Below are positions 3,443 to 60,862 of a stretch of DNA of 64,000 nt, one piece after another. The stretch spans positions 82,971-146,970 of the forward strand of contig CAVQFA010000003.1 of the NCBI GenBank assembly GCA_963711735.1. Direction: 5' to 3'. The position numbers and the translations under genes are program-made. Position 1 is the stretch's first letter. Every line of letters starts with the position of its first letter. Source of the DNA: Candidatus Gottesmanbacteria bacterium (GTDB lineage: Bacteria; Patescibacteriota; Microgenomatia; UBA10105; UBA927). The notes beneath the pieces are model-generated. The model was given only the letters and a program-made list of their open reading frames with translations, was not told where the DNA came from and did no database searches.

Positions 3443-3512
3443 CGCGGGGTAGTGTACAGTTGCACAGAAGGCTCATAATCTTCTAGGCTGGGTGCGACTC
3501 CCAGCCCCGCAA
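3443..3512 (+). tRNA. tRNA-like cloverleaf with a CAT anticodon. Noncanonical: C1-A72 mismatch, D-loop without GG, T-loop TGCGACT. Possibly a degenerate tRNA-Met or an attachment site
   Basis: Manual fold: acceptor GCGGGG/CCCCGC with a C1-A72 mispair; U8; D-stem GTGT/GCAC; anticodon stem GAAGG/TCTTC with loop CTCATAA (U33-CAT-A37); T-stem CTGGG/CCCAG; discriminator A. The 3' part is repeated at 4743-4789. Confidence 0.35.
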
Positions 3513-3525
3513 CATATTAAATAAT

Positions 3526-3553
3526 AACCCTCCTTGTGAGGGTTTTTATTTTA
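3526..3553 (+). terminator. Rho-independent terminator (AACCCTC-CTTGT-GAGGGTT + T-rich tail)
   Basis: Hairpin plus TTTTATTTT, seen directly in the sequence. Confidence 0.5.
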
Positions 3554-3641: not shown

Positions 3642-3890
3642 TTATTCATCCAACTCTTTTTTAGGTAAATCTTCCTCCGCCGGTCCGTTCAACACCTTAC
3701 CATCTGTATTGAAGCTAGACCCATGACACGGACAGTCCCAGGTTTTGTCCTTACCGTTCCATTCGACAACGCAGTCCAAATGGGTACACAATGCTGATAA
3801 TGCGTGTACTTTCCCTGTTTTATCTTTATATACCGCTATTTTTTCATTTTTCTGGTTTATTATTTTCCCCTCATCTGTATTCAGATCCAT
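3642..3890 (-). CDS. Small Rieske [2Fe-2S] domain protein (Rieske-type ferredoxin)
   Basis: Box I CTHLDC and box II CPCHGS. Start chosen at MDLNTDEGK because a GGAGGTG RBS sits 6 nt upstream. The track ORF extends to 3938. Confidence 0.7.
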   Translation of the reverse strand: MDLNTDEGKIINQKNEKIAVYKDKTGKVHALSALCTHLDCVVEWNGKDKTWDCPCHGSSFNTDGKVLNGPAEEDLPKKELDE

Positions 3891-4005
3891 AAAATCACCT
3901 CCGGACTTAAAAATAGAGAAGAATTCCCAACACACCATGGATTATTGCAAGTGTTATTGAAACTGCAGAAATCAAAAAATATGATACGTTCCTCAATATT
4001 TTTAT

Positions 4006-4389
4006 TTACTCCACCACAATTTTTCCGGTCATTGACGGGTGAATGGCGCAACTATAGTCAAAGCTTCCCTTAGTATTAAATGTGAACGCGAACGTATCTC
4101 CCTGGTTTAAGTCTGATGAATTAAACGCATCGGACTTAATTTTATGAGTGGCTGAGTCCTGATTTGTCCAGGTTACTTTTGTGCCTTGCTTTACGGTCAG
4201 AGTACCGGGATTAAAAGCGAAATTCTGGATTGTAACTGAGTTGGCTTCAACGGCTGTTTGCGTTTGTTGTGTTGTTTGGGGCTGTGCTGCCGGTTGCACT
4301 TGACTTGGTTTGTTTTTCATAAGGAAATATAACCCGCCTATGACTACAACAACCAATACTATTCCGATAAGTATTTTATTCATATACAT
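4006..4389 (-). CDS. Membrane-anchored type-1 copper (cupredoxin; plastocyanin/amicyanin/halocyanin-like) protein
   Basis: N-terminal TM helix, Q/T-rich linker, then a cupredoxin fold with the Cu ligands His (THKI) ... Cys-x2-His-x2-Met (YSCAIHPSM). Confidence 0.7.
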   Translation of the reverse strand: MYMNKILIGIVLVVVVIGGLYFLMKNKPSQVQPAAQPQTTQQTQTAVEANSVTIQNFAFNPGTLTVKQGTKVTWTNQDSATHKIKSDAFNSSDLNQGDTFAFTFNTKGSFDYSCAIHPSMTGKIVVE

Positions 4390-4410: not shown

Positions 4411-4596
4411 TTAATGATCAGAATCAACTTTAATTTCAGGTTTCTTTATTACAGTCTCCCTGGGTAAATAATGAATTAAAGCCTTCTCTACCAGAGCTGT
4501 TAAACTACAATCTTCAACTACTGCTTGAGCTTTAGCATGTTTCGCTAAATCAGGATGAATGAATAGAGTTAATCGTTGTCTATTATTAAGTGTCAT
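4411..4596 (-). CDS. Ribbon-helix-helix (CopG/Arc/MetJ-like) DNA-binding protein
   Basis: 61 aa with the RHH pattern RLTLFIHPDLAKHAK...SLTALVEKALIHYL. CACGTT half-sites lie immediately upstream. Confidence 0.5.
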   Translation of the reverse strand: MTLNNRQRLTLFIHPDLAKHAKAQAVVEDCSLTALVEKALIHYLPRETVIKKPEIKVDSDH

Positions 4597-4642
4597 ACTT
4601 CATATTATACAATTAATTGAAGTACTTGTTAAGTAATAATTG

Positions 4643-4677: not shown

Positions 4678-4936
4678 CTTTTTCAATATTCTTCGTACTT
4701 TCGGCTGATAAATACAGGTTTTTGAAATAAAAACCAGGTTCGGATTTCATCTAACCCCCGCAACAAATAAAATATAAAACCCTCCCTATGAGAATTTTCT
4801 CTATCGATCACTGAGAAGAGCAGTTTGACATGAGCGGTCGAAAAGGTTCAGGTATGTAACAAAAATATATAAGCAGACCACCTTGTCCGTAAAAAAGAGT
4901 ATATTAAAATAGTATAAATTTTAATACTATATCGTT

Positions 4937-5924: not shown

Positions 5925-6102
5925 TACCCCTCCCAATAACAATATGGTCCAAAAATTCTGATCTCTACAAACCCCCGCAATGGGTGAACGAATGAAAAGG
6001 CAGATGGGTTCCGGTTGGTATACCCCGTTTTTCCGGTAACAAGAAGCTATTGATAGTGATAGTATAATAGGAAAAACGTCCGGTGAATAAATTTATCCTA
6101 TT

Positions 6103-7230
6103 ATGTATAAAGAAATAATGAGCCCGCTTCTTGACAGACTGGATTCTGAAACAATGCAGAGATTTACAAAGGACGCACTTCGTATTGCGGAATTATCTCC
6201 GGTGACTCTGAAAGTTTTAGAATTACTCGCAGATCGGCATAAAAGATTTAAAGATGAAAGATTACGGGTACAATTAGGAGGTGTTGAGTTTGAAAATCCG
6301 GTGGTTGTAGCAGCCGGTTGGGATAAAAACGGTCTTGCGGTGAAGGGGTTGTATGCTCTCGGTTTTGCCGGAGTTGAAGTCGGATCCGTTCTAACATACC
6401 CCCAACCGGGTAATCCAAAACCGAGACAATTTGTTATTGGTCCGGGCGTTGCGTTAAACAGGCGCGGGTTTGACAGTGACGGTATGGGAAAGGTAAACAG
6501 TAATCTGAGAAGATATACCAACAGCGGAATTCCTATCGGAATAAATATAGGGAAAAATAAGGAAATTCCGGATATTGCAGCCCCCTGGATGTATGCGGCT
6601 GTTACAAGGCAACTATATAGACATGCTGCATATTTTGTGGTTAATGTTTCCTCACCGAATACTCCGGGACTCAGGAGACTTCAGGAAAAGGAGCCATTAA
6701 CAGATATTGTCCGAGCGGTAAATCAAACAATGGATGAAATGGGAGGAAGAAAGCCTTTATTTGTAAAAATTGCACCGGAGTTAACACGTGAGGCTACAAA
6801 TGATGTTATTCAGGTAGTTTTGGATAATGGTTTAACAGGTATTATTGCTACAAATACCACAACAAATCCTGATATAAAAGCAAAATATGGGGAAATGTGG
6901 AAAAATGAAGCCGGGGGTATAAGCGGTGACGATTCTGTTTATAGACGTATGGCAACAGAAAAAGTTGCTCATATTTACAGAGAGACAAAAGGTGCAATTG
7001 AAATTATCGGAGTAGGCGGAATAAAAGACGCGGAAACTGCATTAGAGAAAATAAAGGCAGGTGCAAAGGTAGTTCAGGTCCTGACAGCAATTCGCGGCGA
7101 AGGACCGACGGTGGCCGGAAGAATCAACCGAGGAATTGTGGACTTCATGGAAAAGGAAGGAATAAAGAATCTCAGCGAAATAATTGGTATGAGGAATTCT
7201 GATTTCTACCAATCCCCTGTTTCGTTATAG
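6103..7230 (+). CDS. pyrD: Dihydroorotate dehydrogenase, class 2 (quinone-type) like
   Basis: 375 aa, collinear with E. coli PyrD. Motifs: NPVVVAAGWDKNG, NRRGFDSDG, VNVSSPNTPGLR, LFVKIAPEL, IIATNTT, GGISG, IIGVGGI. Confidence 0.85.
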   Translation: MYKEIMSPLLDRLDSETMQRFTKDALRIAELSPVTLKVLELLADRHKRFKDERLRVQLGGVEFENPVVVAAGWDKNGLAVKGLYALGFAGVEVGSVLTYPQPGNPKPRQFVIGPGVALNRRGFDSDGMGKVNSNLRRYTNSGIPIGINIGKNKEIPDIAAPWMYAAVTRQLYRHAAYFVVNVSSPNTPGLRRLQEKEPLTDIVRAVNQTMDEMGGRKPLFVKIAPELTREATNDVIQVVLDNGLTGIIATNTTTNPDIKAKYGEMWKNEAGGISGDDSVYRRMATEKVAHIYRETKGAIEIIGVGGIKDAETALEKIKAGAKVVQVLTAIRGEGPTVAGRINRGIVDFMEKEGIKNLSEIIGMRNSDFYQSPVSL

Positions 7231-7388: not shown

Positions 7389-8264
7389 TTACATTTCGCG
7401 CAGATTACCGGCTTTCTTCCAGCAATCGTAGTCAGCATAGAAGATGGCAATCGGCAAGCGAGGTGCAGATACTTGAGTGAACCAGCCGATGAACGGACGG
7501 TTGAAGACTAGTGGCCTCGGCTCATCCAGATCAATACCCTTGCGCATTGCCATACCAGTTGCGACTTTGACCCGGGCACCTTCCTTGTTGATCCGCAACA
7601 TGAACTGTTGATACGCTTCACTGATGTACCAGTACTGATCACTTTCATCGTGAGTATCAGCACCAACCAGGAAGCTGATGTCAGGCTTCATGTTGAAATC
7701 CACTTCGGGCACCTGTACGGTCGAGATGTTGCCAACGCGAGAATGACCCTTTGACATCGTTGTAAACGCGATGCGAATCAGATCCATCGGGCTGGTTGGC
7801 GTCGTATTGGGCATGGTGAGCCAGAGCTTGTCACCGCTTTTAGTCAGCAGACTTGCAACCTGCGAACCTTCCACAGTGAAAACAGTGTGTCCACCTTGAG
7901 GGATTTCAAACCCAGCGTGTGTCCGGTTGTCGCGGCCGTAAATCTCGCAAAGCGCAGCCTGCTTGAGCCATTCGATGAGCATGTCAAGGATCGAAACAAC
8001 GCCGATGCCCTCGAGTGGTCCGTTGAACATGGGATCAAATCCGCTGTCCGTGAGAAAACGGTTCAGTTCTTCCCAGTCAGTGGACGCTTTGGCTTTGAGA
8101 TTTGCCAGTGCACTCAACATGCCTTTGTATTGGCGGTAAAGCTCAAAGACGACGATCTGATTCTGGTTCTTGGTACCCCACTTCCGATCTGCACCCAGGT
8201 ATGCGTTTTCCAGAGTATGCAACGCATGGAAGATGGTTGTTACGTCGATCGCTTGTGTAGCCAT
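7389..8264 (-). CDS. Serpin-like protein, short form (paralog A)
   Basis: 291 aa. The C-terminal part is collinear with serpins: the breach-like LILLLKWKV, the hinge EGARVKVATGMAM (cf. EGTEAAAAT), a reactive-centre-loop-sized spacer, then FNRPFIGWF...PRLPIAIF (cf. FNRPFLFxI...PLFMGxV). The ~100 N-terminal serpin residues are missing. Confidence 0.5.
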   Translation of the reverse strand: MATQAIDVTTIFHALHTLENAYLGADRKWGTKNQNQIVVFELYRQYKGMLSALANLKAKASTDWEELNRFLTDSGFDPMFNGPLEGIGVVSILDMLIEWLKQAALCEIYGRDNRTHAGFEIPQGGHTVFTVEGSQVASLLTKSGDKLWLTMPNTTPTSPMDLIRIAFTTMSKGHSRVGNISTVQVPEVDFNMKPDISFLVGADTHDESDQYWYISEAYQQFMLRINKEGARVKVATGMAMRKGIDLDEPRPLVFNRPFIGWFTQVSAPRLPIAIFYADYDCWKKAGNLREM

Positions 8265-8323: not shown

Positions 8324-9187
8324 TTACATAAGATCACCCGGATCAGTCCAGTTCTCCTGGGTGATGTGTGCGACGAGCAGCGGTTTAGCGAGACCGTCGC
8401 GGACAATCCAGACCAGGAACGGTCGGTCGATGACGAGGTCGGGCTTCGACAAAATCGCGAATTCAAGCGTGATAGCGGCAGCTGCAGCGCTTTTGAGTAA
8501 CGCGCCCTTATCGTTCATCTTGAAGATCGTCTGCTGCTTCGCCTGGCTGATCCTCGCCTGCTGACCTGTGTTGGCGGTAGTCTCCATGTTCAGGAGCCAA
8601 CTAATATCGACAAGCTGATCGAGATCGACCATCGGGAAAACCAGGTCACCAAACTCCCTGTTGTGCTCGAGGGATGCCTGTATCTGCTCGACGTAGCTCA
8701 CGAGGTCGAAGTCAGTCGGTGGTGTCTCCATGACAGTCATAAAAACCTGATCTCCCGACTTGGTGGCAATGCAGACGACCGGTTTGGGGTGTTTGACGGA
8801 CGTATAGTAGGACATACCATTTTCCATCCGAACACCGTCATAGGTTTTACCATCTGCTGCGCGAAACTTCTCCTTCATGCCCTCCACCTTCCATTTGAGT
8901 AGTAGGATCAGGGTGGCAGCAACGCCGAAAGTGTCCTCGTCGAAATCGTCCAGCGTGATGCTGAAACCGCGCTCCTGCAAGAAACGGTTAATGTCCTCCG
9001 CACTCCAACTCGCAATCGACTCGATCTCCGAGATGCCCAGAACCTCATTGCGTGTGCGGTCGAAAAACTCAGTCAGGAAGCGCGTCTGCATCTGGTTCTG
9101 GGGACGCCAAACGCGACCCTCACCGATGATGTCATCAGCCTTACGGATAGCAGCTACGATAGGATGCATACATACTGTAGTACTCAT
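8324..9187 (-). CDS. Serpin-like protein, short form (paralog B)
   Basis: 287 aa, a paralog of 7389-8264. LILLLKWKVEGMKEKF, VFPMVDL, the hinge KGALLKSAAAAAIT and IDRPFLVWIVRDGLAKPLLVAHITQE match the serpin C-terminal signature. An AAGGAG RBS sits 8 nt upstream of the ATG. Confidence 0.5.
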   Translation of the reverse strand: MSTTVCMHPIVAAIRKADDIIGEGRVWRPQNQMQTRFLTEFFDRTRNEVLGISEIESIASWSAEDINRFLQERGFSITLDDFDEDTFGVAATLILLLKWKVEGMKEKFRAADGKTYDGVRMENGMSYYTSVKHPKPVVCIATKSGDQVFMTVMETPPTDFDLVSYVEQIQASLEHNREFGDLVFPMVDLDQLVDISWLLNMETTANTGQQARISQAKQQTIFKMNDKGALLKSAAAAAITLEFAILSKPDLVIDRPFLVWIVRDGLAKPLLVAHITQENWTDPGDLM

Positions 9188-9922: not shown

Positions 9923-10711
9923 CTAGTTATCAGACTGTTTCTGAAACTTCGTCATGCGCTCTGCGACACGCTGTTCGATCGGTATCTCAGGGCTTTTAGC
10001 AAGAGATTCCAATTCGGCGGTAGCTTTGAGTTCGGCGCGAACTTTCTCTGCCTGTTCGGTCCAAACATCTGCTTCAGCTTCAGCGTCTTTGACCAAGTCG
10101 TATGCCTTCTTGATCTGTTCGTCGTTGCCATCAACGCCGAGTGTCGAAATCAGCTTGTTGGCATCGCCAACGCTTCGCGCTGTGCGCGACCGGACATCGA
10201 TCTCGTTGACCTGGCGGGCGCGAACGGCGATGATCTTTGCCAAATCCGTAAGAGCTGCTTCGACGTCAGCTTCCTTAGTTTTGATCTTGTTGAATTCAGG
10301 CTGAATGGTATCCACGCGGCCTTGAGCTTTAGCAATTTTTTCTTCGGCTTTCGTGACCAAATCAGCATTCTGAATGCTTGCCGCGTTATCAGCTGCGGCA
10401 TTGTATTTGGCAACATCAGCCATAGCTTCTGCCAAATCGTTTTGCAGGCGACGTCGGACTGTCTTGATTGCAATCAGGTCGGCGTTACCACGTGCTTGTT
10501 TGATTTCAGCATCGCGCTTAGATTTCAAGGCGCGATCCTTTGCGCTGTCCAGCAAACGCTGAGCGCGGGTTTTCAGCCCGAAAACGCGTACGCGGATTGT
10601 CTCCGCTAAAGGGTCAGGCGAGAGTGCACACCAGGCGGCAATAATCGCCCCAATGACCACAGCCAGTAAGATAGTTGTTCCAGTAGACATTTGATATACT
10701 CCTTCTTGCAT
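9923..10711 (-). CDS. Membrane-anchored coiled-coil protein, PspA/IM30-like (tentative)
   Basis: 262 aa: an N-terminal TM helix followed by a long A/Q/R/E/K-rich coiled coil. ...VRARQVNEIDVRSR...KDAEAEADVW resembles the conserved PspA segment ending in AEAEA. Confidence 0.4.
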   Translation of the reverse strand: MQEGVYQMSTGTTILLAVVIGAIIAAWCALSPDPLAETIRVRVFGLKTRAQRLLDSAKDRALKSKRDAEIKQARGNADLIAIKTVRRRLQNDLAEAMADVAKYNAAADNAASIQNADLVTKAEEKIAKAQGRVDTIQPEFNKIKTKEADVEAALTDLAKIIAVRARQVNEIDVRSRTARSVGDANKLISTLGVDGNDEQIKKAYDLVKDAEAEADVWTEQAEKVRAELKATAELESLAKSPEIPIEQRVAERMTKFQKQSDN

Positions 10712-10788
10712 TGATTTAAAAGGTTTTGTCTATGATTTGTTTGATCAGATTTTATTTTCTTTGGGTTATATCTCTTTTACTATCCTCC

Positions 10789-11400
10789 TTATGATGCCAA
10801 TGCTAGGATCAAAGTCGCAATTTTCACTACCACGACCATGATGACATGGCTATTGTTGTCCTTCATTGTCACCCAGTCACGGAATTCATCCATGTTGTGT
10901 ATAGAGAAAACGAACCGTGCAATCAGGATGGTGATACAGTCCCCGACAATCTCGCCCAAGGCTCCTCTGGTCATGATGCCATACAGATACTGATCAAAGG
11001 AAGCTCCTTTTATCGATACGATCAGTGCGAGAGTTAGGAAAATCAAACCACCCAGGATAATCGCGTGACTGTCATTCCGTGGGCTTTCGAATTCTCGCTT
11101 TATTTGACGAATTGGGGTATCCAACACATGGTAAAAAATCACCCATGCCCGCACAAAAACGATACCGATCACGATGCCCAATCGGATAAAATACTCCCCT
11201 ATCCAACCGGGGATATTCCCGAATGTTTCCGTCACCACATGTGTTGACGGAGCCAAAACATATTGAGCAATGGCAAATACTAAAACCATAAGGCTCCACC
11301 AAATAATCGTATATAACGTTCCGCTGATACCTCTAGTCGGAAAATGCACATGTTTCTTAATGCTGGCGCTCATAAATCGCTCCTTGATCTTATGCTGCAC
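10789..11400 (-). CDS. Integral membrane protein (about 5 TM), function unknown
   Basis: 203 aa with hydrophobic helices. Same strand and operon-like spacing as its neighbours. Confidence 0.5.
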   Translation of the reverse strand: MQHKIKERFMSASIKKHVHFPTRGISGTLYTIIWWSLMVLVFAIAQYVLAPSTHVVTETFGNIPGWIGEYFIRLGIVIGIVFVRAWVIFYHVLDTPIRQIKREFESPRNDSHAIILGGLIFLTLALIVSIKGASFDQYLYGIMTRGALGEIVGDCITILIARFVFSIHNMDEFRDWVTMKDNNSHVIMVVVVKIATLILALAS

Positions 11401-12160
11401 GCAAAATCTTGCCGCAGTACTGTTGAATGGTCATTCCTAGTGCATGACCCATCTTCCAAACACGATCCGCTCCAGCCTTGACGTTTTCCAGATATATGAT
11501 GTTCTTCTGGGTGTCTTCGGCCAACATGTATTTCACCATCATGCCGTTTGGAAGGTGACTTGTTCCATCTGTTTGTTCATACCGAAGATATCCGACGTCT
11601 AGTACGGTCAATTTCTGACCATTCCACTTAAACGAATAACTCCGTGGTACTTGATCATATTGTTCGCTGAAGGTTACACCGGCTTCATCAAACATGGAAG
11701 CGGATTCGCCCTCTAACACTATCGCGTTTCCTTTGTCGAACCAAAACCAGCCATCCGGACGTTTTATCAGCATAATTGTGCCGTCCAGAATAAAAACCGG
11801 CCAGTTTTCTCCCCGATCAGTGAAATTACGATCAGAACGATTTAGCGCGCACAATTGTCCCCTGCAGGTAACAACACGTTCTTTTCGTTCAAGAACATTA
11901 ACGCTATCTAAGTCGATCTCTACCGTCTCTCCTGAACGCAAATCTTCGAATTGCTTCTCTATAGGTGCGTCATAAGGAATACGGCTCATGGATGCCTTTG
12001 TTTCATTGGCAACCTGAACTAGAACGTTTGTAGATTTTCGAACAGTAGTGATCCATTCTTTCAAATCACGAATATGTTGTGGATTCGAGAGTAGGTAGCC
12101 GAGACCAGCCACCAACAATATCACAAACCCAAATATTACGAGTATTGTTCCTGTTATCAT
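11390..12160 (-). CDS. Membrane-anchored hypothetical protein (possibly DUF4178-like)
   Basis: 256 aa with an N-terminal TM and a soluble domain containing WPVFILDGTIMLIKRPDGWFWFDKG and YSFKWNGQKLTVLDVGYLRY. The family assignment is from memory only. Confidence 0.4.
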   Translation of the reverse strand: MITGTILVIFGFVILLVAGLGYLLSNPQHIRDLKEWITTVRKSTNVLVQVANETKASMSRIPYDAPIEKQFEDLRSGETVEIDLDSVNVLERKERVVTCRGQLCALNRSDRNFTDRGENWPVFILDGTIMLIKRPDGWFWFDKGNAIVLEGESASMFDEAGVTFSEQYDQVPRSYSFKWNGQKLTVLDVGYLRYEQTDGTSHLPNGMMVKYMLAEDTQKNIIYLENVKAGADRVWKMGHALGMTIQQYCGKILRAA

Positions 12161-12183
12161 GCTTTAAGCTCCTTATTTTTGAC

Positions 12184-13482
12184 TTACCATCCGTCATCAC
12201 TGCCCCAATCGTCGCTGGAATCCCAACTGTCATCACTGCCCCAATCGTCGCTGGAATCCCAACTGTCATCACTGCCCCAATCGTCACTGGAATCCCAACT
12301 GTCATCACTGCCCCAGTTGTCATCGCCGCCCCAATCGGAATCAGAACTCCAGTCAGTATCAGATCCTTCGTCATCAGAACTACCTGAAGAATCAGAATCT
12401 GAATTCCAATCCCAGCCTGAAGATGAACTCGGCGAATCATCATTATCAGAATTGCTAGGAACAGAAGTTGGTGGTGGAGGTTCAGCAGCAGAAATGCTCA
12501 TGTTTGCATAACTCACACATGAATTAACATGTGTAGTCACACTTGAAAAATCCTGAGATATACATGACTGATATGCTAAATCTCCTTCACTAATAGCAAG
12601 GTTATATTTGCTTTGCGCGACGATACTGTCATAAGCACCGATCAGTTGTGAGGCTGCAAGATTAATGGTGCTTTGACAATTTGCGATTTGTGATTGTGCT
12701 TGGTCAGCGGAGACATTGAGTTGTTCAGCGGTTGTTCTTGCTGATTCAACTTGATTTGCAACTTGTTGTGCTTGATCGTATGCTACAGGTTTGTCCACAA
12801 CGCCATCCGGAACGATCACTGTAAGTGTCGTCCGTGCGACATTAAGGCCTATTGATGCTTGGTTGAGTATGCTTAATGCGGATTCGTATGATAAAAGCGT
12901 TGATGACCCACATAAAGCTTTTGCAGGCAGGGTATTAATGTATTGTCGTCCTTCGTCAATGCTTGCCTGAACCCTATCGATATAACCACTGTCGATTTCT
13001 TGGGTTTTTTGATTAAGGATGTCATAGTATCGCTGATCCGTAGTACCTGGAGGACCAAGGATTTGAATAATTATCAGTTCTGAATTATTTAGAGCTGCAT
13101 CTGCTTCTTCCCAGTACTGACGTGCTAAGGTGCGGTTATTGTTTTGTAGCGCCTGCACACCAGATGCCCAGATATTATAGATTGTTCCATTGTTCTCTAG
13201 ATTGTCACGGGAAGTAGACAGTTTCTGCTCAAATCCTTCAGACCAATGTCGAGCAAATAGAGCTGCGTTTTGATCGAATTCATTCTCCGCGTTAGGAAGC
13301 ATTTGAAGCAGCGTTGTTCTGCGTACCTCAATATCTGCGAGCTTATTAGTTAAGTCACGTAAGTCCGCTGCACCAAACGCATTTATAATGAGTCCAATAG
13401 CTATGAGAACGATTCCCAAAGCGGCAACCCATGCCCACTTACTGTTGTCGACCTCGTGTCGACGATAGTAATAAACAGACAT
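12184..13482 (-). CDS. Membrane-anchored protein with a C-terminal acidic Trp-rich tandem repeat (DDWGSDDSWDSS)n
   Basis: 432 aa. The N-terminal TM is KWAWVAALGIVLIAIGLIINAFG. The C-terminus is encoded by 36-nt tandem DNA repeats. Confidence 0.55.
   Translation of the reverse strand: MSVYYYRRHEVDNSKWAWVAALGIVLIAIGLIINAFGAADLRDLTNKLADIEVRRTTLLQMLPNAENEFDQNAALFARHWSEGFEQKLSTSRDNLENNGTIYNIWASGVQALQNNNRTLARQYWEEADAALNNSELIIIQILGPPGTTDQRYYDILNQKTQEIDSGYIDRVQASIDEGRQYINTLPAKALCGSSTLLSYESALSILNQASIGLNVARTTLTVIVPDGVVDKPVAYDQAQQVANQVESARTTAEQLNVSADQAQSQIANCQSTINLAASQLIGAYDSIVAQSKYNLAISEGDLAYQSCISQDFSSVTTHVNSCVSYANMSISAAEPPPPTSVPSNSDNDDSPSSSSGWDWNSDSDSSGSSDDEGSDTDWSSDSDWGGDDNWGSDDSWDSSDDWGSDDSWDSSDDWGSDDSWDSSDDWGSDDGW
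12191..12330. repeat. Intragenic tandem repeat: 36-nt unit (CCAATCGTCGCTGGAATCCCAACTGTCATCACTGCC) about 3.5 copies
   Basis: Near-perfect direct copies seen in the sequence. They encode a 12-aa D/S/W/G repeat on the minus strand. Confidence 0.8.
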
Positions 13483-13842
13483 TTGGCATACCTCCTGCTC
13501 TGAACGTCAAGCTGGTTTGCGTCATCTTTCTATTGTTTAGTTGTCCTCCTGTATGAGATAAGTCGGATAAAATTGTATCAGCACTATAATAAAGCTGTAG
13601 TGCTTTCAAAGCCGATTGTTATCGACCCTCAAAGCACTACAGCAATCCCCTTTTTAATTTTTTCTCTTGAAGTTGTTAAGGTGCAAAATCTATGGTTTCC
13701 AACCCCACAATCACCCTTTCGGGTATATGTGGTTCTAATTTCTTTTTTTAAAAAGAAAAAGAACCACAAAAAACACTCCGCAAAATTGGAGTGTGGTTGT
13801 TTGGTTACGTAGCCATAGAATAGAACTCTCTCTTCGGGAAAA

Positions 13843-13890
13843 CAAAATAACCGCCGCCGGTGATTTCCACTGGCAGGCGGTTAAAATTTT
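13843..13890. terminator. Strong hairpin (AACCGCC GCCGGTG...CACTGGC A GGCGGTT) flanked by an A-run and a T-run; bidirectional terminator-like
   Basis: Seen directly in the sequence. Confidence 0.4.
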
Positions 13891-14108
13891 GAGGCACAAT
13901 TGCCCCAACCCCCAAAGATTTGAGTAAACGGAATTATACCTGACACTACTCTCACTGTCAATCACTATAGGGTATTTTATGTTAAAAAACCTTGGCTTGC
14001 ATTGAGGTTAATCAGCAGAACATATATATATTGATATGTCGGAAGTTTGATTTTCTTGCTTTTTCGTTGACTTCTGTCTTTCAGTCCCCATACAGTAGAA
14101 CTAGGCAT

Positions 14109-14672
14109 ATGAAATCAAAGAAAAAACCGGGTTTTCACATTTCAAATACCCTTCTCATTGTTCTTCTCCTGGCTAACGTTCTCATTCTCGACATTTGGGT
14201 TGTAACCCATTATCTTTGGGGTTCTCCTTCGGTACTCGGTGTTTCAAGTGATGCGTGTCCGCAATCGTGCATCGACAGGATAAACCGTACGTCAGGGTCC
14301 GCATCATCCTCCAAAGAATACTTCGTGCCGCTCGGGTCAGGAACAGGCACATCCAAAGAATGGGCGGATGTTTCCGGGGCACAGGCGTATATCGACAGCA
14401 CTCTCTACCCCGCCGGAAAGACTGTGACATTTGAGGTAACCCTTACGATTCCGGCAGGAAACCAGATCGTATGGGTGCGCCTCTATAACGCCACAGACAA
14501 ACACCCTGTATGGTTCTCGGAACTGTCTATGGAAGGATCCGGTCCGCGCGCGCTTATTTCAGGTCCCATTACCCTTGATTCGGGGAAAAAACTCTACGTC
14601 GTACAGCTTAAAACCCAACTCGGAACGCTTACAAACGTACTCCAGTCACGCATCCGCATTGTAGCGAAATAA
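14109..14672 (+). CDS. Secreted/membrane-anchored hypothetical protein
   Basis: Start taken at MKSKKKPGFHISNTLLIVLLLANVLIL (signal/TM), not at the track start 13992. No recognisable domain. Confidence 0.45.
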   Translation: MKSKKKPGFHISNTLLIVLLLANVLILDIWVVTHYLWGSPSVLGVSSDACPQSCIDRINRTSGSASSSKEYFVPLGSGTGTSKEWADVSGAQAYIDSTLYPAGKTVTFEVTLTIPAGNQIVWVRLYNATDKHPVWFSELSMEGSGPRALISGPITLDSGKKLYVVQLKTQLGTLTNVLQSRIRIVAK

Positions 14673-14699
14673 AGGCAATATTCGAACGCAAAATCATTG

Positions 14700-14771
14700 T
14701 GCCAGAGGAGAGGATCGGACTCTCGACGCCACGCTTATGAAGCGTGTGCTCTACCACTGAGCTACTCTGGC
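14700..14771 (-). tRNA. tRNA-Met (anticodon CAT), elongator-type
   Basis: Minus strand reads GCCAGAG-TA-GCTC-AGTGGTA-GAGC-A-CACGC-TTCATAA-GCGTG-GCGTC-GAGAG-TCCGATC-CTCTC-CTCTGGC-A. Acceptor and all arms are perfect; CCA is not encoded. The overlapping track ORF 14697-14882 is spurious. Confidence 0.9.
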
Positions 14772-14890
14772 CTGACGGAAAATGATAAAGTTCCAAAACA
14801 GAGCTCCATTATTCTACGAAATATAACCGTGTTTCGCAATTCGGATAATAAATCCAGCTCGTTCTTCTCTACCCGCGTTTAAGTCTTTTT

Positions 14891-15256
14891 TCAAAAGAAC
14901 AGCTTCCACCACTCTTTCCAGTATGGTTTATTAAATGTTTTTTCGCGAATACTGTTTCCGTCTCCTGCCCCGTTTGATTCAGGAGGTGCGACGAAAATGA
15001 CTGTTTCCCCCGGTTTAGCAAGACCGAGCTTGTTTCTCGCTTCCTCTTCAATATAATCCGGGTCATTTGACCGTTCCAGTTCCCGCTTCAGTTCCGTATT
15101 TTCTTTCTGCACCCGCATAAGCTCTTTTTCCCTGTCTGTTACGATATCGCGTTTTTGCCATACATCATAGGCAGATTTCCCCATGTTGTAAGCGAGGCTG
15201 GCGCTTAGAATAAAAATTACCAGTAAAACGGGTGTGTTATGTATAATTTTTTTCAT
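14891..15256 (-). CDS. ftsB: Cell division protein FtsB/DivIC (septum formation initiator)
   Basis: 121 aa: N-terminal TM, coiled coil, and the family signature YIEEEARNKLGLAKPGE. Confidence 0.75.
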   Translation of the reverse strand: MKKIIHNTPVLLVIFILSASLAYNMGKSAYDVWQKRDIVTDREKELMRVQKENTELKRELERSNDPDYIEEEARNKLGLAKPGETVIFVAPPESNGAGDGNSIREKTFNKPYWKEWWKLFF

Positions 15257-15418
15257 TATTCACCTCTTGCAGACCAGCTTGAAATATGATATTATAGGCT
15301 TCGTAGACTGTTTTTGAAGCGTTTTTATGCTCCAAAATGGCTTTTTAAATAAAGTCATGTCTATTTACAGTTTTTATTATATACAAATCAAATACTTTCC
15401 TGCTAAACCTATAATAAT

Positions 15419-16279
15419 ATGTCCCTAGACCTGAAGACCGCTCATGCCCAATTTATCGAACACCTTACCTCACGCAGACGTGCCCGCGCTACCATCATAG
15501 CATACGCCAAGGACATCGATCAGGTGCTTGCATACCTTACAAATGCCGGAAAAAAGGATGTGACTGACGTGACGCGTGATGAAATCGAAGCGTTTCTGAA
15601 AAAACTGTCAAGCGACAGCTACACACCCAAGTCCGTTTCACGGAAAATCAACTCGATCAAGACATTTTTCCGGTTTCTCAAATCATCCGGTGCTATTACG
15701 GCTGATCCGGCAATTGAGATAGAGCATCCCAAATACGAAGTCAAACCGCCCCGGATTCTGTCTAAACTGGAGTACCGCGCCCTTCGGGATGCGTGCCGCG
15801 GTGATCTTCGTACTCATGCAATCGTTGAACTTTTTCTCCAGACAGGAGTGAGGATCGGAGAACTGGCTAATCTGACTCTAACGGACATCAAAGAAACAGA
15901 ACTTCATATCGCGCCTGAGGAAGGTCACGCAGAACGCATGGTTCCTTTAAATAAAGCAGCTAAAGATGCTCTCAACAGCTATCTTGCACAGAGAAATTCC
16001 AACGGTACAAGCCAGGCTCTTTTTATCACAAAAACAGGCAAGCCGCTTCTTATCAGAAACATCCGTACTGCAATTGACCGGTATTTCCGTGTGGCAGGTA
16101 TTGAGGGAGCCAAAGTCAATGACCTTCGGCATACATTCATCGCCCACCACCTCATTGCCGGTACACCCATCACAACCCTGTCAAAACTTGTCGGACATAA
16201 ACGTTTATCCACAACGGAAAAGTACCTGGATCTCGTCAAGGATAAGCAGACGGAAAACGTGAAGCTTGATGAGTTATAA
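15419..16279 (+). CDS. xerD: Tyrosine recombinase XerC/XerD-like
   Basis: 286 aa. The N-terminal SAM-like domain reads TIIAYAKDIDQVLAYL. The catalytic region LRHTFIAHHLIAGTPITTLSKLVGHKRLSTTEKYLDL carries the R..H..R..Y motifs. Confidence 0.8.
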   Translation: MSLDLKTAHAQFIEHLTSRRRARATIIAYAKDIDQVLAYLTNAGKKDVTDVTRDEIEAFLKKLSSDSYTPKSVSRKINSIKTFFRFLKSSGAITADPAIEIEHPKYEVKPPRILSKLEYRALRDACRGDLRTHAIVELFLQTGVRIGELANLTLTDIKETELHIAPEEGHAERMVPLNKAAKDALNSYLAQRNSNGTSQALFITKTGKPLLIRNIRTAIDRYFRVAGIEGAKVNDLRHTFIAHHLIAGTPITTLSKLVGHKRLSTTEKYLDLVKDKQTENVKLDEL

Positions 16280-16911: not shown

Positions 16912-16934
16912 AAATATTTAATATATGTCGTTTG

Positions 16935-17006
16935 TGCGCCTGCTTGGAATCGGACCAAGTACATCCACTTTATAAGAGTGGCGTTCTACCACTGAACTAC
17001 AGGCGC
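16935..17006 (-). tRNA. tRNA-Ile (anticodon TAT)
   Basis: Minus strand reads GCGCCTG-TA-GTTC-AGTGGTA-GAAC-G-CCACT-CTTATAA-AGTGG-ATGTA-CTTGG-TCCGATT-CCAAG-CAGGCGC-A. All stems are perfect, and positions 34-36 are TAT. Confidence 0.85.
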
Positions 17007-17085: not shown

Positions 17086-18374
17086 TTGCTACAATACGCG
17101 TACATGGATCGGATCAAACGGATGCTCTATTTTATCGTTGCCGGGTATTTTCGGGTGTTCGCGCGCATCCGGCTTTCCCGATGGCATCCGACTATTATTG
17201 TCATTACGGCTTCAAGCGGAAAAACAACGCTTTTACATATGCTTGCATCACAACTCGGAAATCGTGCTAAATTCTCCTATCACGCCAATTCCGCTCTCGG
17301 AATCCCATTCGATATCCTGGATATCCACAGGAAAACGCTTCTTCGTCGCGAATGGATAGGTATATTCCTGAAAGCATTGTTTATGGCATTTGCTTCTCCT
17401 CCAAACGAAAAACTCTATATAGTTGAAGCAGATTGTGACCGCCCCGGAGAAGGAAAGTTCCTGGGTTCATTTCTCAAACCCCACATTACCGTATGGCTCA
17501 ACGTTACGCGTACGCACAGTATGAATTTTGACCGGCTCGTTGCGCGTGGGAAATATGCGTCTGTTGACGCAGCTATAGCTCACGAATTCGGATATTATAT
17601 CCAATTCGCAACAGACTCTGTCATTATAAACGGAGATTCCTCACTTCTGTAGAAACGAACTGCACCGGACAAAGGCAAAAATTTCGGAAATGAAAATGGC
17701 AGACTGTACCTCCTTCCGGGTAAAAAAATATGAAACGGAATTTACCGTCAGAGGTAAAATCTATACTTTCCGCGCCATGCTTCCGCCGGATGCGTTTTAT
17801 GAAGTTGATGCGGTTATCCGGCTTATGGAATATCTTTCCCTCCCCATCAAACCCGCATTCCCGAATTTCGTCATGCCTCCTGGCCGCGGTATGGTATTTG
17901 ACGGGAAAAAGAACATGACTCTGGTAGATTCCAGCTACAACGCAAACGGGTCATCAATGACAAACATGCTCACCCTTTTTTCCCGATATCCTGCAAAGAC
18001 GAAATGGCTGGTGCTCGGCGATATGCTTGAACAGGGAGAGGAAGAACGGGAGGAGCATGCCAAACTTGCGCCGTTTATTGCGACAGTCGGCGCCAAACAA
18101 ATCATCCTTATGGGTACGCGTATTACCTCATACACATACCCGATTCTTGCAAAAGACACTTGGAAAAAACGTGTCGGTAGTACACTTCGACGAGCCGAGT
18201 GAGGTTCTTGATTATCTGGAAAAAAATCTCAAAGGCGGTGAGGCAATATTTTTCAAAGGAGGACGCCTGTTGGAAGGTGTTATTGAACATCTTCTTGCCA
18301 GTCCCGCTGACGCAAAATATTTAAGCCGCAGGGAGCTTGTTTGGCAACGTCGGCGTCAAAAGGCCGGTTTGTAA
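17086..18374 (+). CDS. murF: UDP-MurNAc-tripeptide--D-Ala-D-Ala ligase (MurF-like Mur ligase), interrupted by two +1 frameshifts (about 17630-17650 and the A6 run at 18162-18167)
   Basis: Three consecutive track ORFs in frames 1, 2 and 0. The first carries the P-loop ITASSGKTT and INGDS. The second, ADCTSFRVKKYETEFT ... GRGMVFDGKKNMTLVDSSYNANGSSM, is collinear with E. coli MurF. The third is the C-terminal FFKGGRLLEGV. Confidence 0.7.
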
Positions 18375-39945: not shown

Positions 39946-42201
39946 CTATTCCTGCTCCGATGGCCATTTCGATATGATGAGCGGATCGGATGTTTTTCGC
40001 GGGATTTCTTTCCAGATAGCTTCCGTTACAAACGGCATGAAAGGGTGGAGAAGCTTAAGCAGCGTAAGAAATACGTGCCGGAATACAGCGAGCGCCTGAA
40101 TATCACCCGATTTGAACCTTTCTTTATTTTTTTCTAAATATATATCGGCAACCCTGTGCCAGATAAATTCATACAGCGTCTGAGCTGCATCGGAAAACCG
40201 GTATGTGTCGAGGTTTTTTGTCACACCGGCAACAAGCATGTTTAGCTCCGATATAATCCGCTTATCTTCCGGATTTTTCAACTCCTCATGCATTGCGGTG
40301 TCATAGAACGGAATATCTTTTTTGCCCGTAAGGGACAACTGACAGCTGTCAACCATAAATCTCCCTATGTTCCAGATCTTATTTGCGAAGTTGCGCATCC
40401 CCCGGATTTTATCTTCCGAAATGGCGATGTCGCTTCCCGGTCCGGCACCGAAAACAAGAGCGAAACGGAGCGCATCAGCACCGTATGTATCAACCATTTC
40501 AATCGGGTTAACGACATTCCCTTTGCTTTTACTCATCTTCTGTCCTTTGGAATCCACAACCCGACTATGAAGGTGGATCGTCTTAAAAGGAACCTCGTCC
40601 GTGAGATACAACCCGAGCATCATCATCCGTGCAACCCAGAAAAACAGGATATCCCAAAGGGTATCAAGAACTGAGGTGGGATAGAAATATTCAAAATCCC
40701 CGGGTTTACTTTTGAGGGTATTTACCGGCCATTGTCCGGAAAGGAACCACGTATCAAACGTATCTGTTTCCTGTAACACGTGTGTCCTCCGCAGTGCTAG
40801 TACATAAATGGGCATCAAGTGCATATATTGCATCAACCGGTGCCGTAAGAGACTGCAAACCCGATTGGATTTCTTCAAATGAATGTTTTTCTGCGACATC
40901 TTTGTACCTGCCGTGGATTTTCTGTTTATCCGTATCAAGAAAAGATAGTTCGATGTTTTTATTGCAGTCTAAACAATACCAGGCAGGAATTCTGGGTCCC
41001 CACACGATTTGTCTCGAGATGTTCCAGTCTTCAATATTGTTTAACCAGTCAAAATACATTTTCTCAAAACGCTTGAGGGGCTACGATTTTAGTCTTTTTC
41101 TTTTTCACGGCTTCGATTGCTTTTACGGCAAGCGGTTTAGTTTTTATATACCACTGCGGGAGAAGCATCGGTTCGATTGTTGATTTACACCGGTAACAAA
41201 CGCTGACTGTATGTCTGAGAGTCTCTGTTTTTACGAGCTTTCCGGTTTTTTCCAGGTCTTCAACGACGGCTTTCCGTGCGGGCGTCACCTTCATACCGGT
41301 GTATTTTTCCGGAACATTATAAAGCCGTCCGAATCTGTCAATGGAACTGATAATCGGCAATTTGTGACGCTGTCCGATTTCATAATCCGTAGGATCATGC
41401 GCCGGAGTGACTTTGAGAGCACCCGTACCGAAATCTCTTTCAATTTCATCATCAGTTACAACAGGTATTTCTTTACCCGTTATGGGAATGGTTGCCATTT
41501 TGCCGACAATACTTTTGTAACGCTTATCCTTCGGATGAACGGCGACAGCGACATCGGCAAATATTGTTTCGGGTCTGGTTGTGGCAATTTGGATAACACC
41601 GTAGTCCAGGTAATAAAGAAGGTCGTCGCGTTCCTCGTGATTTATTTCGAGGTCAGAAAAGGCAGTTCCGCACTTGACGCAGTAATTCACAAGCCTGTTG
41701 GTGCGGTATATAAGTCCGTCTTTATGGAGTTTTCTGAAAGTCTCAAAGACCCTCTCAACAATTTCCGGTTCCAGACTGTAATGGTAGCGCGTCCAGTCGA
41801 GAGAAAATCCGAGACGCTTCATCTGGTCCTTATTGATTGTCTTGTTAGCGTCAACAAAATCGGCAATCATCCGATACAAAGTGTCACGGTCAAAGTCAAA
41901 CCTGCTTTTTCCTTCTTTTGCCAGTTTCCTTTCAAATACAAACTGGGTTTCGATACCGGCGTGATCTCCTCCGGGAAGCCAGAGTGTCGGATACGCCTCG
42001 CATCCGGTGATACCGGATCATGATATCTTCAACGGTAAAAAGCGCGTGTCCCATATGCATGGGATCGTTGGCGTTCGGAAGGGGAAGGAGAATGGAGAAT
42101 GGTTTCTTTTTTTTATCTATGGAAGGAGTAAAGTACCCACCCTCTTCCCACATGCGGTAGATGGATTCTTCATGTTTCTTTGCTTCGTATGCTTTATCCA
42201 T
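39946..42201 (-). CDS. valS: Valyl-tRNA synthetase, interrupted by three frameshifts (four track ORFs in successive frames)
   Basis: 41932-42201 holds the N-terminus with [13 protein letters not shown] (the HIGH region). 41064-41879 holds the CP1 editing domain ([17 protein letters not shown]). 40754-41059 is in another frame. 39946-40938 carries [26 protein letters not shown] and the anticodon-binding region. Confidence 0.75.
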
Positions 42202-42486: not shown

Positions 42487-43600
42487 CTATTCAACCTCCA
42501 CATCAAGATCTGGTTCTGCTTCAATTGTGCGCCAGTCAACCTTCTTCCCCCTGAAATATGCGTATGCTCCGATGTATGCGGCGTTATCCGTGCAAAGAGG
42601 TACGGGAGGAAAAAACAACTGCATGTTGCAGGATGTACATTGTGTGTTAAATTTTTCCCGGAGACGAAGGTTTGCGGCAACTCCGCCGGATACAAGAATG
42701 GACTTCGCTGAGTACTTTTCTGCCGCTCGGAGTGTTTTTACTACAAGTACATCGGTAATTGCTTCCTGCACTTCGTATGCCAATGCACTTACACGTTGTT
42801 GTTGTAAGTTGTAGGTTGTAAGTTATTAAATATTTATTCCACTCTCTCTGAAGTATCGCGGTTTTGAGTCCCGAAAAGGAAAAGTTGAGCGTATCATCAT
42901 GCATCATGGGACGGGGTAAACCAATCTTAAATTTCAAATTTGAAATTTTAAATTGAGATGCTGCTTCCTGTATCGCTGCCCCCCCGCGTGACCCGAATCC
43001 CAAAAGCCGGGCGCTTTTATCAAATGCCTCACCCGCCGCATCATCAATCGTTCCCCCAAGCCATTTCAAATCCTTCGGCGAACGCATGAGAAACAGTTCC
43101 GTGTGTCCTCCGGAAACAACGAGGGAAATGGCGGGAAAAGATATGACTATATTGTTGCTCCTCGACGGTCCTCGGAGCAAATTTCCTTCAGAAGACTGAA
43201 GGAAATTTGCATACATATGAGCCAGGACGTGGTTGACGGGAATAATCGGTTTGCCTGTCACATACGCTATCGTTTTTGCGGCTTCAACTCCTATAAGAAG
43301 CGATCCGATAAGCCCCGGGCCGGTCGTCACGGCAATCGCATCAATGTATTTCTCTATGCGTTTCTTATACTTTTCCGTTTCTGTGACTGTCTCTTTATCC
43401 GCAAATGGCTCGAGGGCTTCAACAATAACGGGAATGATAGACGCCAACTGTTCCCGCGCCGCAACCTCCGGCACGATCCCGCCCCATTTCTCATGCATGG
43501 ATGTCGATGAGGCAACAACGTTTGTGATGATTTTCGTTCCGTTCTCCACTATTGAAGCAGCAGTTTCATCACAGGATGTTTCGATTGCTAAGATAATCAT
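42487..43600 (-). CDS. tsaD: tRNA N6-adenosine threonylcarbamoyltransferase TsaD (Kae1/Gcp), interrupted by a frameshift inside a short tandem repeat at 42790-42840
   Basis: The N-terminus MIILAIETSCDETAASIV ... HVLAHM is in one frame. The C-terminus, with SGGVAAN and CTDNAAYIG, is in ORF 42487-42783. The junction falls in GTTGTAAGTT-like repeats. Confidence 0.7.
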
Positions 43601-60307: not shown

Positions 60308-60316
60308 AGTTCCCTT

Positions 60317-60862
60317 ATGAAAATCTATACCAGAACCGGCGACGACGGAACGACGTCTCTCTTTGGAGGAAAGCGTACCCGGAAAGATGACCCGCGCGTA
60401 GAGGCATACGGATCCATTGATGAGTTAAACAGTGCCGTCGGATTTCTGATATCAGAGTGTAAAACAGACTCCGTTATACGCGCTCTCACTGACGTGCAGC
60501 AAACCCTCATGAGTATCGCCGGATTTCTTGCGGGAAGTCCGCTTGATACGAAATTCCTTGATCATAAAGTGACGGATATGGAACACCTCATAGACGAATT
60601 TAGCACCGGTGTCCCCAAGATTACCAATTTCATATTACCCGGCGGTTCACCTTGTGGCGCGTGGGCGCACGTAGCCAGAACCGTATGCAGGAGGGCAGAA
60701 CGGACAATTGTCCGGACAAGCAAAGAAAAACCGGTGAATTTGGGTTTCAGTCAAATACTCACGTATATAAACCGTCTTTCTGACCTCCTATTTGTTATTG
60801 CGCGCACAGAAAATTATGCACGCGGAATTAATGAGCAGGTATGGTCGGGACAAAAAAAATAG
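60317..60862 (+). CDS. ATP:cob(I)alamin adenosyltransferase, PduO type
   Basis: 181 aa beginning MKIYTRTGDDGTTSLFGGKRTRKDDPRVEAYGSIDELNS. Confidence 0.9.
   Translation: MKIYTRTGDDGTTSLFGGKRTRKDDPRVEAYGSIDELNSAVGFLISECKTDSVIRALTDVQQTLMSIAGFLAGSPLDTKFLDHKVTDMEHLIDEFSTGVPKITNFILPGGSPCGAWAHVARTVCRRAERTIVRTSKEKPVNLGFSQILTYINRLSDLLFVIARTENYARGINEQVWSGQKK

Follow-up and report, generated by a model that had tools for sequence, protein, structure and literature searches.

A Truncated Membrane-Hairpin Gene Between a Rieske and a Cupredoxin Gene of a Gottesmanbacteria Genome: Remnant of a Putative Trans-Membrane Electron Relay

To our knowledge, the Patescibacteria (candidate phyla radiation, CPR) and the DPANN are described as lacking electron-transport chains. 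Many members of both groups encode an outward-facing cupredoxin and sometimes NirK. The single-domain cupredoxin of CPR has been proposed as a donor to NirK, and the link by which cytoplasmic or quinone electrons reach this cupredoxin has been stated as not identified (PMC5581439, PMC12931201). Another described system that bears on the present locus is YhfW of Bacillus subtilis, an FAD-Rieske enzyme of unknown function (PMC7317962). Here we analyze a stretch of 64,000 nucleotides of a Candidatus Gottesmanbacteria genome (contig CAVQFA010000003.1, positions 82,971 to 146,970; hereafter the window, with positions counted from its first letter), in which a Rieske [2Fe-2S] gene and a gene for a membrane-anchored cupredoxin lie side by side, parted by the remnant of a third gene, which we call tm72. 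We propose that three genes, cupredoxin–tm72–Rieske, encode a trans-membrane electron relay, with the Rieske protein at its cytoplasmic and the cupredoxin at its extracytoplasmic end, and that this relay is disabled in this genome: a reading we consider probable, though by no means certain.

The Truncated Gene Between the Rieske and Cupredoxin Genes

A preliminary description of the window had assigned the two genes to the Rieske and cupredoxin folds, had called them adjacent and co-oriented, and had credited the cupredoxin with a complete His/Cys/His/Met copper site; all of this is borne out. Both genes lie on the minus strand (Table 1), and the three Pfam profiles concerned are matched above their cut-offs: PF00355 by the Rieske open reading frame (ORF; 3642–3938; E=1.4e-15, 57.4 bits, gathering cut-off 20.3), Cupredoxin_1 (PF13473; E=3.7e-12, 46.6 bits vs 27) and Copper-bind (PF00127; E=3.9e-10, 40.5 vs 21.2) by the cupredoxin ORF (4006–4389). 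The Rieske ORF is over-extended, and its true start is the ATG at 3890; the Shine–Dalgarno sequence GGAGGTGA precedes this codon, and 12 homologues begin at the same MD(L/I). Within the resulting protein, the boxes CTHLDC...CPCHGS comprise the four cluster ligands (C-x-H...C-x-x-H: C35, H37, C53, H56) as well as the two extra disulfide-type cysteines of bc1/b6f Rieske proteins (C40, C55), and an alignment of 23 homologues finds all six residues invariant. A profile search of the PDB places b6f-type Rieske proteins and PetC3 at the top (E down to 6.5e-20); likewise, the AlphaFold2 (AF2) model (pLDDT 96.6) finds its best Foldseek match in the Rieske iron–sulfur protein (ISP) of Chlorobaculum (8hn2, TM-score 0.83), with PetC3 (5cxm) at 0.77. 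The protein (starting MDLNTDEGK) possesses no signal peptide, Tat/RR motif or trans-membrane (TM) segment and neither do its homologues, so that a cytoplasmic location is predicted.

The copper site of the cupredoxin, His...C-x2-H-x2-M (SATH...YSCAIHPSM), is complete, and its C-x2-H-x2-M part is kept in 120 of the 120 closest homologues. At the N-terminus, a 19-residue hydrophobic anchor is followed by a Q/P/T-rich linker. The N side of this anchor carries more positive charge in 83 of the 120 homologues (equal in 30, reversed in 7), a bias that predicts an N-in/C-out orientation and hence an extracytoplasmic copper domain. The best matches in the PDB comprise the C-terminal cupredoxin domain of a NirK, a blue-copper protein of Nitrosopumilus (5fc9) and amicyanin; the NCBIfam matches to amicyanin and halocyanin are sub-threshold, and the equivalog cut-offs are missed for amicyanin (TIGR02657: 48.1 bits vs 110.2) as well as for plastocyanin (TIGR02656: 33.3 vs 87.9). 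Since the predicted topologies place the two proteins on opposite sides of the membrane, we rejected direct electron transfer from Rieske to cupredoxin.

The 115-nt spacer between the two genes, which the preliminary description had passed over, is a truncated tm72 gene: its first 10 codons are joined in frame to its last 20. Looking up contigs that encode close Rieske homologues yielded relatives in which the order cupredoxin–tm72–Rieske occurs with an intact 72-aa two-helix gene (L082, L083, L161, L089 and L090). A DNA alignment with the intact genes of L082, L083, L161 and L166 reveals a 126-nt (42-codon) in-frame internal deletion that is common to the window and a near-identical relative (L001), and that takes out helix 1, the loop and His49, leaving only the outer of two invariant histidines. 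As the window and L001 are independent assemblies, the deletion is not an assembly artefact. L001 keeps the ATG start codon of tm72, where the window has ATA followed by TTG, and no second copy of tm72 was found in the 64-kb window. With helix 1 and His49 lost, the relay is probably disabled in this genome, and as the connecting gene is truncated, the Rieske and cupredoxin genes should not be annotated here as evidence of a working respiratory module.

The Rieske protein of L001, which stands in the same arrangement next to a truncated tm72, is 85% identical to that of the window, followed by those of L082 (74%) and L083 (70%). At the nucleotide level, the Rieske genes of the window (3642–3890) and of L001 (5583–5831) agree in 90.4% of positions, the flanks in 97–100%. 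Relaxed selection following the loss of tm72 is unsupported as an explanation, because dS is raised too (0.24) and dN/dS amounts to 0.31; the pattern suggests (allelic) recombination limited to the Rieske gene rather than decay.

The tm72 Family, Its Partners and the Origin of the Rieske Protein

The family to which the remnant belongs is large and widely distributed. Its close homologues number more than 320, nearly all of them exactly 72 aa in length and 63–83% identical, with source names from CPR (Woesebacteria, Daviesbacteria, Colwellbacteria), DPANN (Woesearchaeota, Ainarchaeum) and Methanoregula, and an exhaustive hidden Markov model search of 1.84 billion cluster representatives returned 388 at E<=1e-3. 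No significant match exists in Pfam, NCBIfam, PDB sequences or Foldseek. AF2 models tm72 as a helical hairpin (pLDDT 92) with helices at 15–38 and 48–71, and the alignment identifies G12-K13-P14, Y18, G20, F27, A31, G40, P45-F46 and G67 as invariant. The same holds for H49 and H63 on helix 2, which are spaced i, i+14 (H-x13-H) and accompanied by a small-xxx-small stripe (S56-A60-G64-G67), while helix 1 displays G20-x13-small, with G, A or S at position 34 throughout and F27 midway. The four-helix bundle of di-haem cytochrome b is marked by the combination of H-x13-H on one helix and G-x13-G on the adjacent one. Members of the tm72 family show this pattern (H49/H63; G20 with [GAS]34), but the remnant in the window does not.

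Fusions among the representatives inform on stoichiometry and topology. Tandem duplicates that comprise four helices and retain the two His pairs (P0265, P0288, P0307) argue for a dimer as the functional unit. In four further proteins (P0333, P0342, P0353, P0414), a CxxCH cytochrome c is fused to the C-terminus of tm72, and three of them reach 36–44 bits on PF13442 (cut-off 27); N-terminal fusions contribute a secreted domain in one case (P0343) and a lipoprotein signal in another (P0344). Cytochromes c are extracytoplasmic. Taken together, the C- and N-terminal fusions predict that both tm72 termini lie outside, with the basic loop (K39, K43, K47, R51) and H49 on the cytoplasmic side, and this topology would place H63 near the outer face. 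An outside carrier (cupredoxin, cytochrome c or b5) would thus meet tm72 at its termini, a cytoplasmic partner (the Rieske protein with its pI of 5.1, an FMN reductase or an FNR-like protein) at its loop. The secreted domain of P0343 (207 aa) has no Pfam hit; by eye, its motifs HYIDQIII and THCNLGG resemble superoxide reductase (SOR), and it may constitute an extracytoplasmic SOR-like partner.

The gene neighbourhoods single out one partner. Scanning metagenomes with the tm72 alignment gave 80 loci, and where enough upstream sequence was available (77 loci), a cupredoxin gene ends <=60 nt upstream of tm72 in 58 and <=2 kb upstream in 65. This pair, with a gap of a few bases, occurs in CPR, DPANN and methanogen-type contigs, and a Rieske gene directly downstream of tm72 was encountered in only 3 of 74 loci (L089, L090, L161). 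What is conserved at the heart of the module is the pairing of the cupredoxin with tm72 rather than with the Rieske protein, and the latter is a rare, optional partner. Viewed from the other side, 7 of 10 loci with a stand-alone Rieske gene have it directly after cupredoxin–tm72 or a tm72 remnant.

Thirty-four loci are of a methanogen type and have an Lhr-like helicase and a thermosome as neighbours. For the other 48 loci, a Pfam census of 150 neighbouring ORFs counted FMN_red (9), rubrerythrin (5), desulfoferrodoxin (4), Fe/Mn-superoxide dismutase (3), ferritin-like proteins (3), cytochrome b5 (3), Ogg (3), MsrA (2) and MsrB (2), that is, a neighbourhood of the oxidative-stress type. FMN_red stands beside tm72 in 13 of 82 loci, where the usual order is cupredoxin–FMN_red(~300 aa, Cys cluster)–[DUF2769]–tm72. 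Individual loci exchange further partners. In L101, tm72 is preceded by rubrerythrin–desulfoferrodoxin and followed by an FNR-like reductase; in L144, it stands between a lipoprotein cytochrome b5 and rubrerythrin. L161, on a 753-kb contig, has cupredoxin–tm72–Rieske next to genes for ApbE, FMN_bind and RnfD-like/FAD/NAD proteins. An ECF sigma/anti-sigma pair precedes cupredoxin–tm72 in L166 and L167, and in the former a Crp/Fnr regulator comes after it. Literature searches yielded nothing specific on a pair of cupredoxin and small membrane protein or on cupredoxins in the oxidative stress of methanogens.

As to the ancestry of the Rieske protein, a genome-contig scan with the Rieske alignment was dominated by the generic motif [TS]WDCPCHG and exposed an ancestry in DAO–Rieske fusions. 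Among the matches listed, the best 80 from GTDB species representatives are 46–63% identical to the window protein, and 70 of these 80 have at least 350 in-frame codons upstream; the rest are cut by contig ends (4), intermediate (4) or stand-alone (2, one of them in a Collierbacteria genome). Pfam confirmed DAO and Rieske in one protein in a Bacteroidales metagenome-assembled genome (L002), Oceanobacillus (L021) and Pseudomonas (L079). A split form is found in L084, where a gap of 20 nt separates a 398-aa DAO gene from the 82-aa Rieske gene downstream of it and the two adjoin a gene for a ferric-reductase/FAD/NAD protein and cytochrome b5 genes. In the 64-kb window, the DAO/FAD domain has no match anywhere, neither in nor beside the Rieske gene. 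By its sequence relationships, the stand-alone Rieske protein is a cytoplasmic electron-transfer domain detached from the C-terminus of YhfW-like FAD(DAO)–Rieske enzymes (~500 aa). An assignment as bc1/b6f subunit was rejected given this kinship and the missing anchor and Tat signal, and a cytochrome b partner (8-helix or split 4+3) was found neither in the 64 kb nor in the related loci.

We also considered that DAO–Rieske fusions might generally be followed by a small His-bearing membrane protein, an idea that was dropped, as only two Bacteroidota loci comply: In L002 (2393–2737) and L026, a four-helix (4-TM) protein of ~115 aa with two 'P-K-W/F...IHGALG' motifs follows the fusion, but hhalign finds no significant similarity between this protein and tm72 (Prob 13%). 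The four-helix gene of L002 adjoins one for a membrane protein of 260 aa that carries a Rieske-like motif (CTHRGG...CPWHGS) at its C-terminus.

A Candidate Relay and Its Rivals

In the relay that we propose, a tm72 homodimer would form a four-helix bundle with two bis-His haems, held by His49 near the cytoplasmic loop and by His63 near the outer face. Electrons would pass from a cytoplasmic donor, which is the Rieske protein here and would be an FMN reductase or FNR-like protein elsewhere, via tm72 to an outside one-electron carrier, the cupredoxin in this locus and cytochrome c or b5 in others. The purpose could be defence against oxygen and reactive oxygen species (ROS), as the oxidative-stress neighbourhoods suggest, or another extracytoplasmic reduction, for example the feeding of NirK where present; neither NirK nor MADH is encoded in the window. 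Here, the Rieske protein and the cupredoxin would persist as orphans or act together with the reduced 29–30-aa peptide. In this scheme tm72 is a concrete candidate for the step that feeds the CPR cupredoxin, with interchangeable donors of which the Rieske protein would be one.

A further-reaching version of this proposal can be advanced only tentatively, and we doubt it somewhat more than we trust it: no di-haem cytochrome b in nature may be smaller than tm72, a homodimer in which two 72-residue hairpins would connect cytoplasmic reductases with outside carriers in organisms that have no respiratory chains (Patescibacteria, DPANN and cytochrome-free methanogens), and the window may show a natural knock-out of it. 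If true, tm72 would represent a trans-membrane electron wire of minimal size. It would supply the CPR cupredoxin/NirK branch, in the role of the 'unidentified non-classical protein', and serve anaerobes as a general device for extracytoplasmic oxygen/ROS defence.

Several observations weigh against the relay. Haem binding by tm72 is something that we infer, and haem is generally regarded as scarce in CPR, DPANN and cytochrome-free methanogens. Comparison with haem-binding membrane families gives sub-threshold matches to Ferric_reduct (E 1e-4 to 0.02) and Cytochrom_B561, and hhalign gave no support for homology between tm72 and the ferric-reductase protein of L084. Moreover, the Cys and Met copper ligands are absent in 14 of 60 tm72-adjacent cupredoxin-fold proteins, mostly at methanogen-type loci, and Rieske loci are found beside copper-homeostasis genes in L082 (CopA, CopZ, HMA) and L085 (CopC). 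As regards its disablement, both flanking genes are intact, promoter and terminator are good and the Rieske dN/dS stands at 0.31 against L001, so that we infer rather than observe the loss of function; a second, intact tm72 may also lie elsewhere in the 567-kb contig, outside the 64-kb window.

The ligand-less partners deserve a remark of their own: In methanogen-type loci such as L092, L095, L097, L100, L130 and others, the cupredoxin-fold protein reads, for example, ...FNDMIHSIPKG..., with two histidines kept, and may have a different metal site or a non-redox role.

Table 1. Coordinates of the module and of its surroundings in the window.
Feature	Positions	Strand	Description	Basis
tm72 gene remnant	3907..3999	-	30 codons, reads I-LRNVSYFLI then SAVSITLAIIHGVLGILLYF, stop	translations, DNA alignment
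Membrane-anchored type-1 cupredoxin, amicyanin-like	4006..4383	-	125 aa (127 aa from alternative ATG at 4389)	Pfam, NCBIfam, PDB matches, topology statistics
Rieske [2Fe-2S] gene	3642..3890	-	82 aa, stand-alone, bc/b6f type, pI 5.1	Pfam, alignment, PDB profile matches, AF2/Foldseek
Ribbon–helix–helix (RHH)-like gene	4411..4596	-	61 aa, first of operon	sub-threshold Pfam/NCBIfam matches
Promoter-like site	4604..4632	-	TTAACA-17-TATAAT, 11/12; just upstream of RHH gene	
Terminator-like hairpin, bidirectional	3526..3544	both	common to tRNA and Rieske operon	terminator scan
tRNA-Met (CAT)	3443..3513	+	converges on module; 3' end = left direct-repeat copy	ARAGORN
3'-half-of-tRNA-like fragment with copy of post-tRNA terminator	4739..4800	+	right direct repeat of 1.25-kb module	
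Third, partial repeat copy	5956..5980	+	...ACCCCCGCAA; bounds acyltransferase segment 5049–5924	
pyrD, class 2 (quinone-dependent type) dihydroorotate dehydrogenase (DHODH)	6103..7230	+	neighbour of module	NCBIfam, Pfam

One competing explanation holds that the genes are coincidental neighbours or relics of unrelated function, brought together by a small island inserted at the tRNA-Met gene. It draws on the architecture of the locus (Table 1). The tRNA-Met, which scores below the Rfam tRNA gathering score, recurs identically after the module in L001 and ~1.4 kb from it in L083. Its 3' end together with the hairpin (3505–3546) is repeated imperfectly and directly (~45 nt; 26-nt core 81%) at 4756–4800, and such repeats of the tRNA 3' end flank both the 1.25-kb module and a 1.2-kb acyltransferase segment, the latter missing from L001. 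Apart from the RHH, cupredoxin and Rieske genes and the remnant of tm72, the module segment contains no genes, and thus no integrase or recombinase. The repeat-bounded cassette of the preliminary description is thus upheld in its tRNA-derived direct repeats, whose geometry fits old insertions at a tRNA gene; mobility is not shown, the same tRNA accompanying the module in L001 and L083. The RHH gene that had been placed with the pair is likewise present as an ORF, though its family matches (DUF6364; the N-terminus of slr0373) are sub-threshold, and it precedes the module only in the sub-lineage of the window, L001 and L083. The deletion in tm72 and the divergence of the Rieske gene relative to its flanks would also suit an accidental assemblage. 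Such an origin by chance is nevertheless unlikely in our view: the same gene order recurs at 59–74% Rieske identity in at least three genomic contexts (L082, L083, L161), and the stand-alone Rieske genes preferentially follow the cupredoxin–tm72 pair or its remnant, as described above.

We deem it quite unlikely that the module serves copper handling, in which case the cupredoxin would bind or buffer outside copper, tm72 would form a His-lined oligomeric copper/proton conduit on its glycine-zipper helix and the Rieske protein would act as reductant or sensor. The idea has a concrete basis in L082, where the module is directly followed (10358–16276) by a copper cluster that comprises a two-component system, genes for a CopA-type ATPase and for an unusual membrane protein with a cupredoxin part (HMA-DsbD_2-Cupredoxin_1, 597 aa), and a CopZ-like gene, and in L085 with its Rieske gene near CopC; the small-residue stripe on helix 2 and the cupredoxin-fold partners that lost the type-1 site and kept their histidines point the same way. 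Yet copper genes are not enriched around tm72 (E1-E2 ATPase in 2 of the 150 census neighbours), the partners swapped in at other loci (cytochrome c, b5, SOR, FMN reductase, FNR-like) are electron-transfer rather than copper proteins, and two histidines 14 positions apart are unable to share one ion.

The preliminary description had further recognized the neighbouring pyrD as class 2, which is confirmed by two NCBIfam equivalogs (NF003652, 329 bits vs 267; TIGR01036, 299 vs 200), the serine motif NVSSPNT and an N-terminal extension of ~50 aa, and had rightly reported that the window contains no cytochrome bc or oxidase genes; the 64 kb likewise lack cytochrome b, DAO, FMN reductase and ApbE. 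That the Rieske protein and the cupredoxin might on their own re-oxidize the acceptor of this DHODH, as pyrD adjoins the module in the window and in L001 and the window shows no other system that could act as acceptor, is highly improbable, given that the two proteins are predicted on opposite membrane sides, that the Rieske protein has no quinol-oxidizing cytochrome b partner, that pyrD is absent at the five other cupredoxin–tm72–Rieske loci (L082, L083, L161, L089, L090) and that the acyltransferase insert already parts it from the module in the window. From the electron sink envisaged earlier, the general idea of an electron-transfer module in a lineage that has no classical chain survives; the link to pyrD, which is not conserved, and the direct redox pair across the membrane do not.

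Apart from the module, a few features of the window may be recorded. A tRNA-Ile with a TAT anticodon (16934–17006, minus strand; ARAGORN, confirmed as tRNA by Rfam) represents an uncommon way of decoding AUA in bacteria. Several genes appear split or frameshifted (39946–41879 and 42647–43600 on the minus strand, 17086–18202 on the plus strand), the set comprising a valyl-tRNA synthetase in two ORFs, a TsaD-like ORF with an aberrant C-terminal tail and a Mur-ligase-like gene in two ORFs; pseudogenization, errors in sequencing or an unusual gene structure may account for these housekeeping genes. Two adjacent paralogues of ~290 aa (7389–8264 and 8324–9187, both minus) match the C-terminal portion of serpins weakly and below threshold, and a 432-aa protein (12184–13482, minus) ends in a long acidic repeat (SDDSWDSSDDWG...). 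On the plus strand, at 57824–60862, a gene for a ribonucleotide reductase large chain (RNR barrel, TSCPD) has directly downstream a gene of the cobalamin adenosyltransferase family PF01923; we read the reductase as probably of the B12-dependent class II.

Comparison with Described Systems

The relay proposed here, cupredoxin–tm72–Rieske, shares elements with several described systems. With regard to the Rieske protein, the YhfW-like FAD-Rieske enzymes are its closest relatives in sequence; unlike them, it has no FAD domain in its own gene, beside it or anywhere in the 64 kb. The cupredoxin resembles amicyanin, plastocyanin and halocyanin as well as the 'pcy' of CPR in being a single-domain type-1 protein with a C-x2-H-x2-M loop, anchored outside and, as in the case of 'pcy', of Patescibacteria. 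It differs from amicyanin and plastocyanin in falling below the equivalog cut-offs, and its conserved gene partner, tm72, is unmentioned in the accounts of the CPR protein (PMC5581439, PMC12931201).

As a whole, the module recalls bc1, b6f and the archaeal SoxFG with sulfocyanin: these systems, too, combine a Rieske protein of the disulfide-cysteine kind, a di-haem b-like membrane part (predicted in the case of tm72) and a cupredoxin acceptor, and the window's Rieske protein finds its best structural matches in the ISPs of Chlorobaculum, PetC3 and b6f. In contrast to the Rieske proteins of bc1 and b6f, however, it has neither TM anchor nor Tat signal, is predicted on the cytoplasmic side and is optional (3 of 74 loci), and the module lacks an 8-helix cytochrome b, a quinol site and a Q cycle. 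The idea of a haem shared by very small membrane subunits resembles cytochrome b559 (PsbE/PsbF), where single-His TM subunits hold a haem between two chains; b559 belongs to photosystem II and has one haem and one helix per subunit, whereas tm72 has two helices and two invariant histidines.

A functional parallel is provided by the conduits of the MsrQ (YedZ)/Fre/MsrP, ferric-reductase-domain and cytochrome b561 types, in which, as in the relay proposed, a cytoplasmic flavin or iron–sulfur donor passes electrons to His-ligated haem b in TM helices and from there to an outside redox protein. These conduits have in common with tm72 the H-x13-H spacing and a setting of oxidative-damage repair or defence, and the matches of tm72 to Ferric_reduct are weak and sub-threshold. 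They differ from tm72 in size, as tm72 with 2 helices in 72 aa would need to dimerize where they have 6 helices, and homology is not demonstrable; in the outside partner, which is a cupredoxin, cytochrome c or b5 in place of a molybdoenzyme; and in the haem, which is putative in tm72. What is new is a widely distributed, undescribed module with no Pfam, NCBIfam or PDB family for tm72, by which the route of electrons to the CPR cupredoxin becomes directly testable; what is known is the kind to which it would belong, that of the trans-membrane electron conduits.

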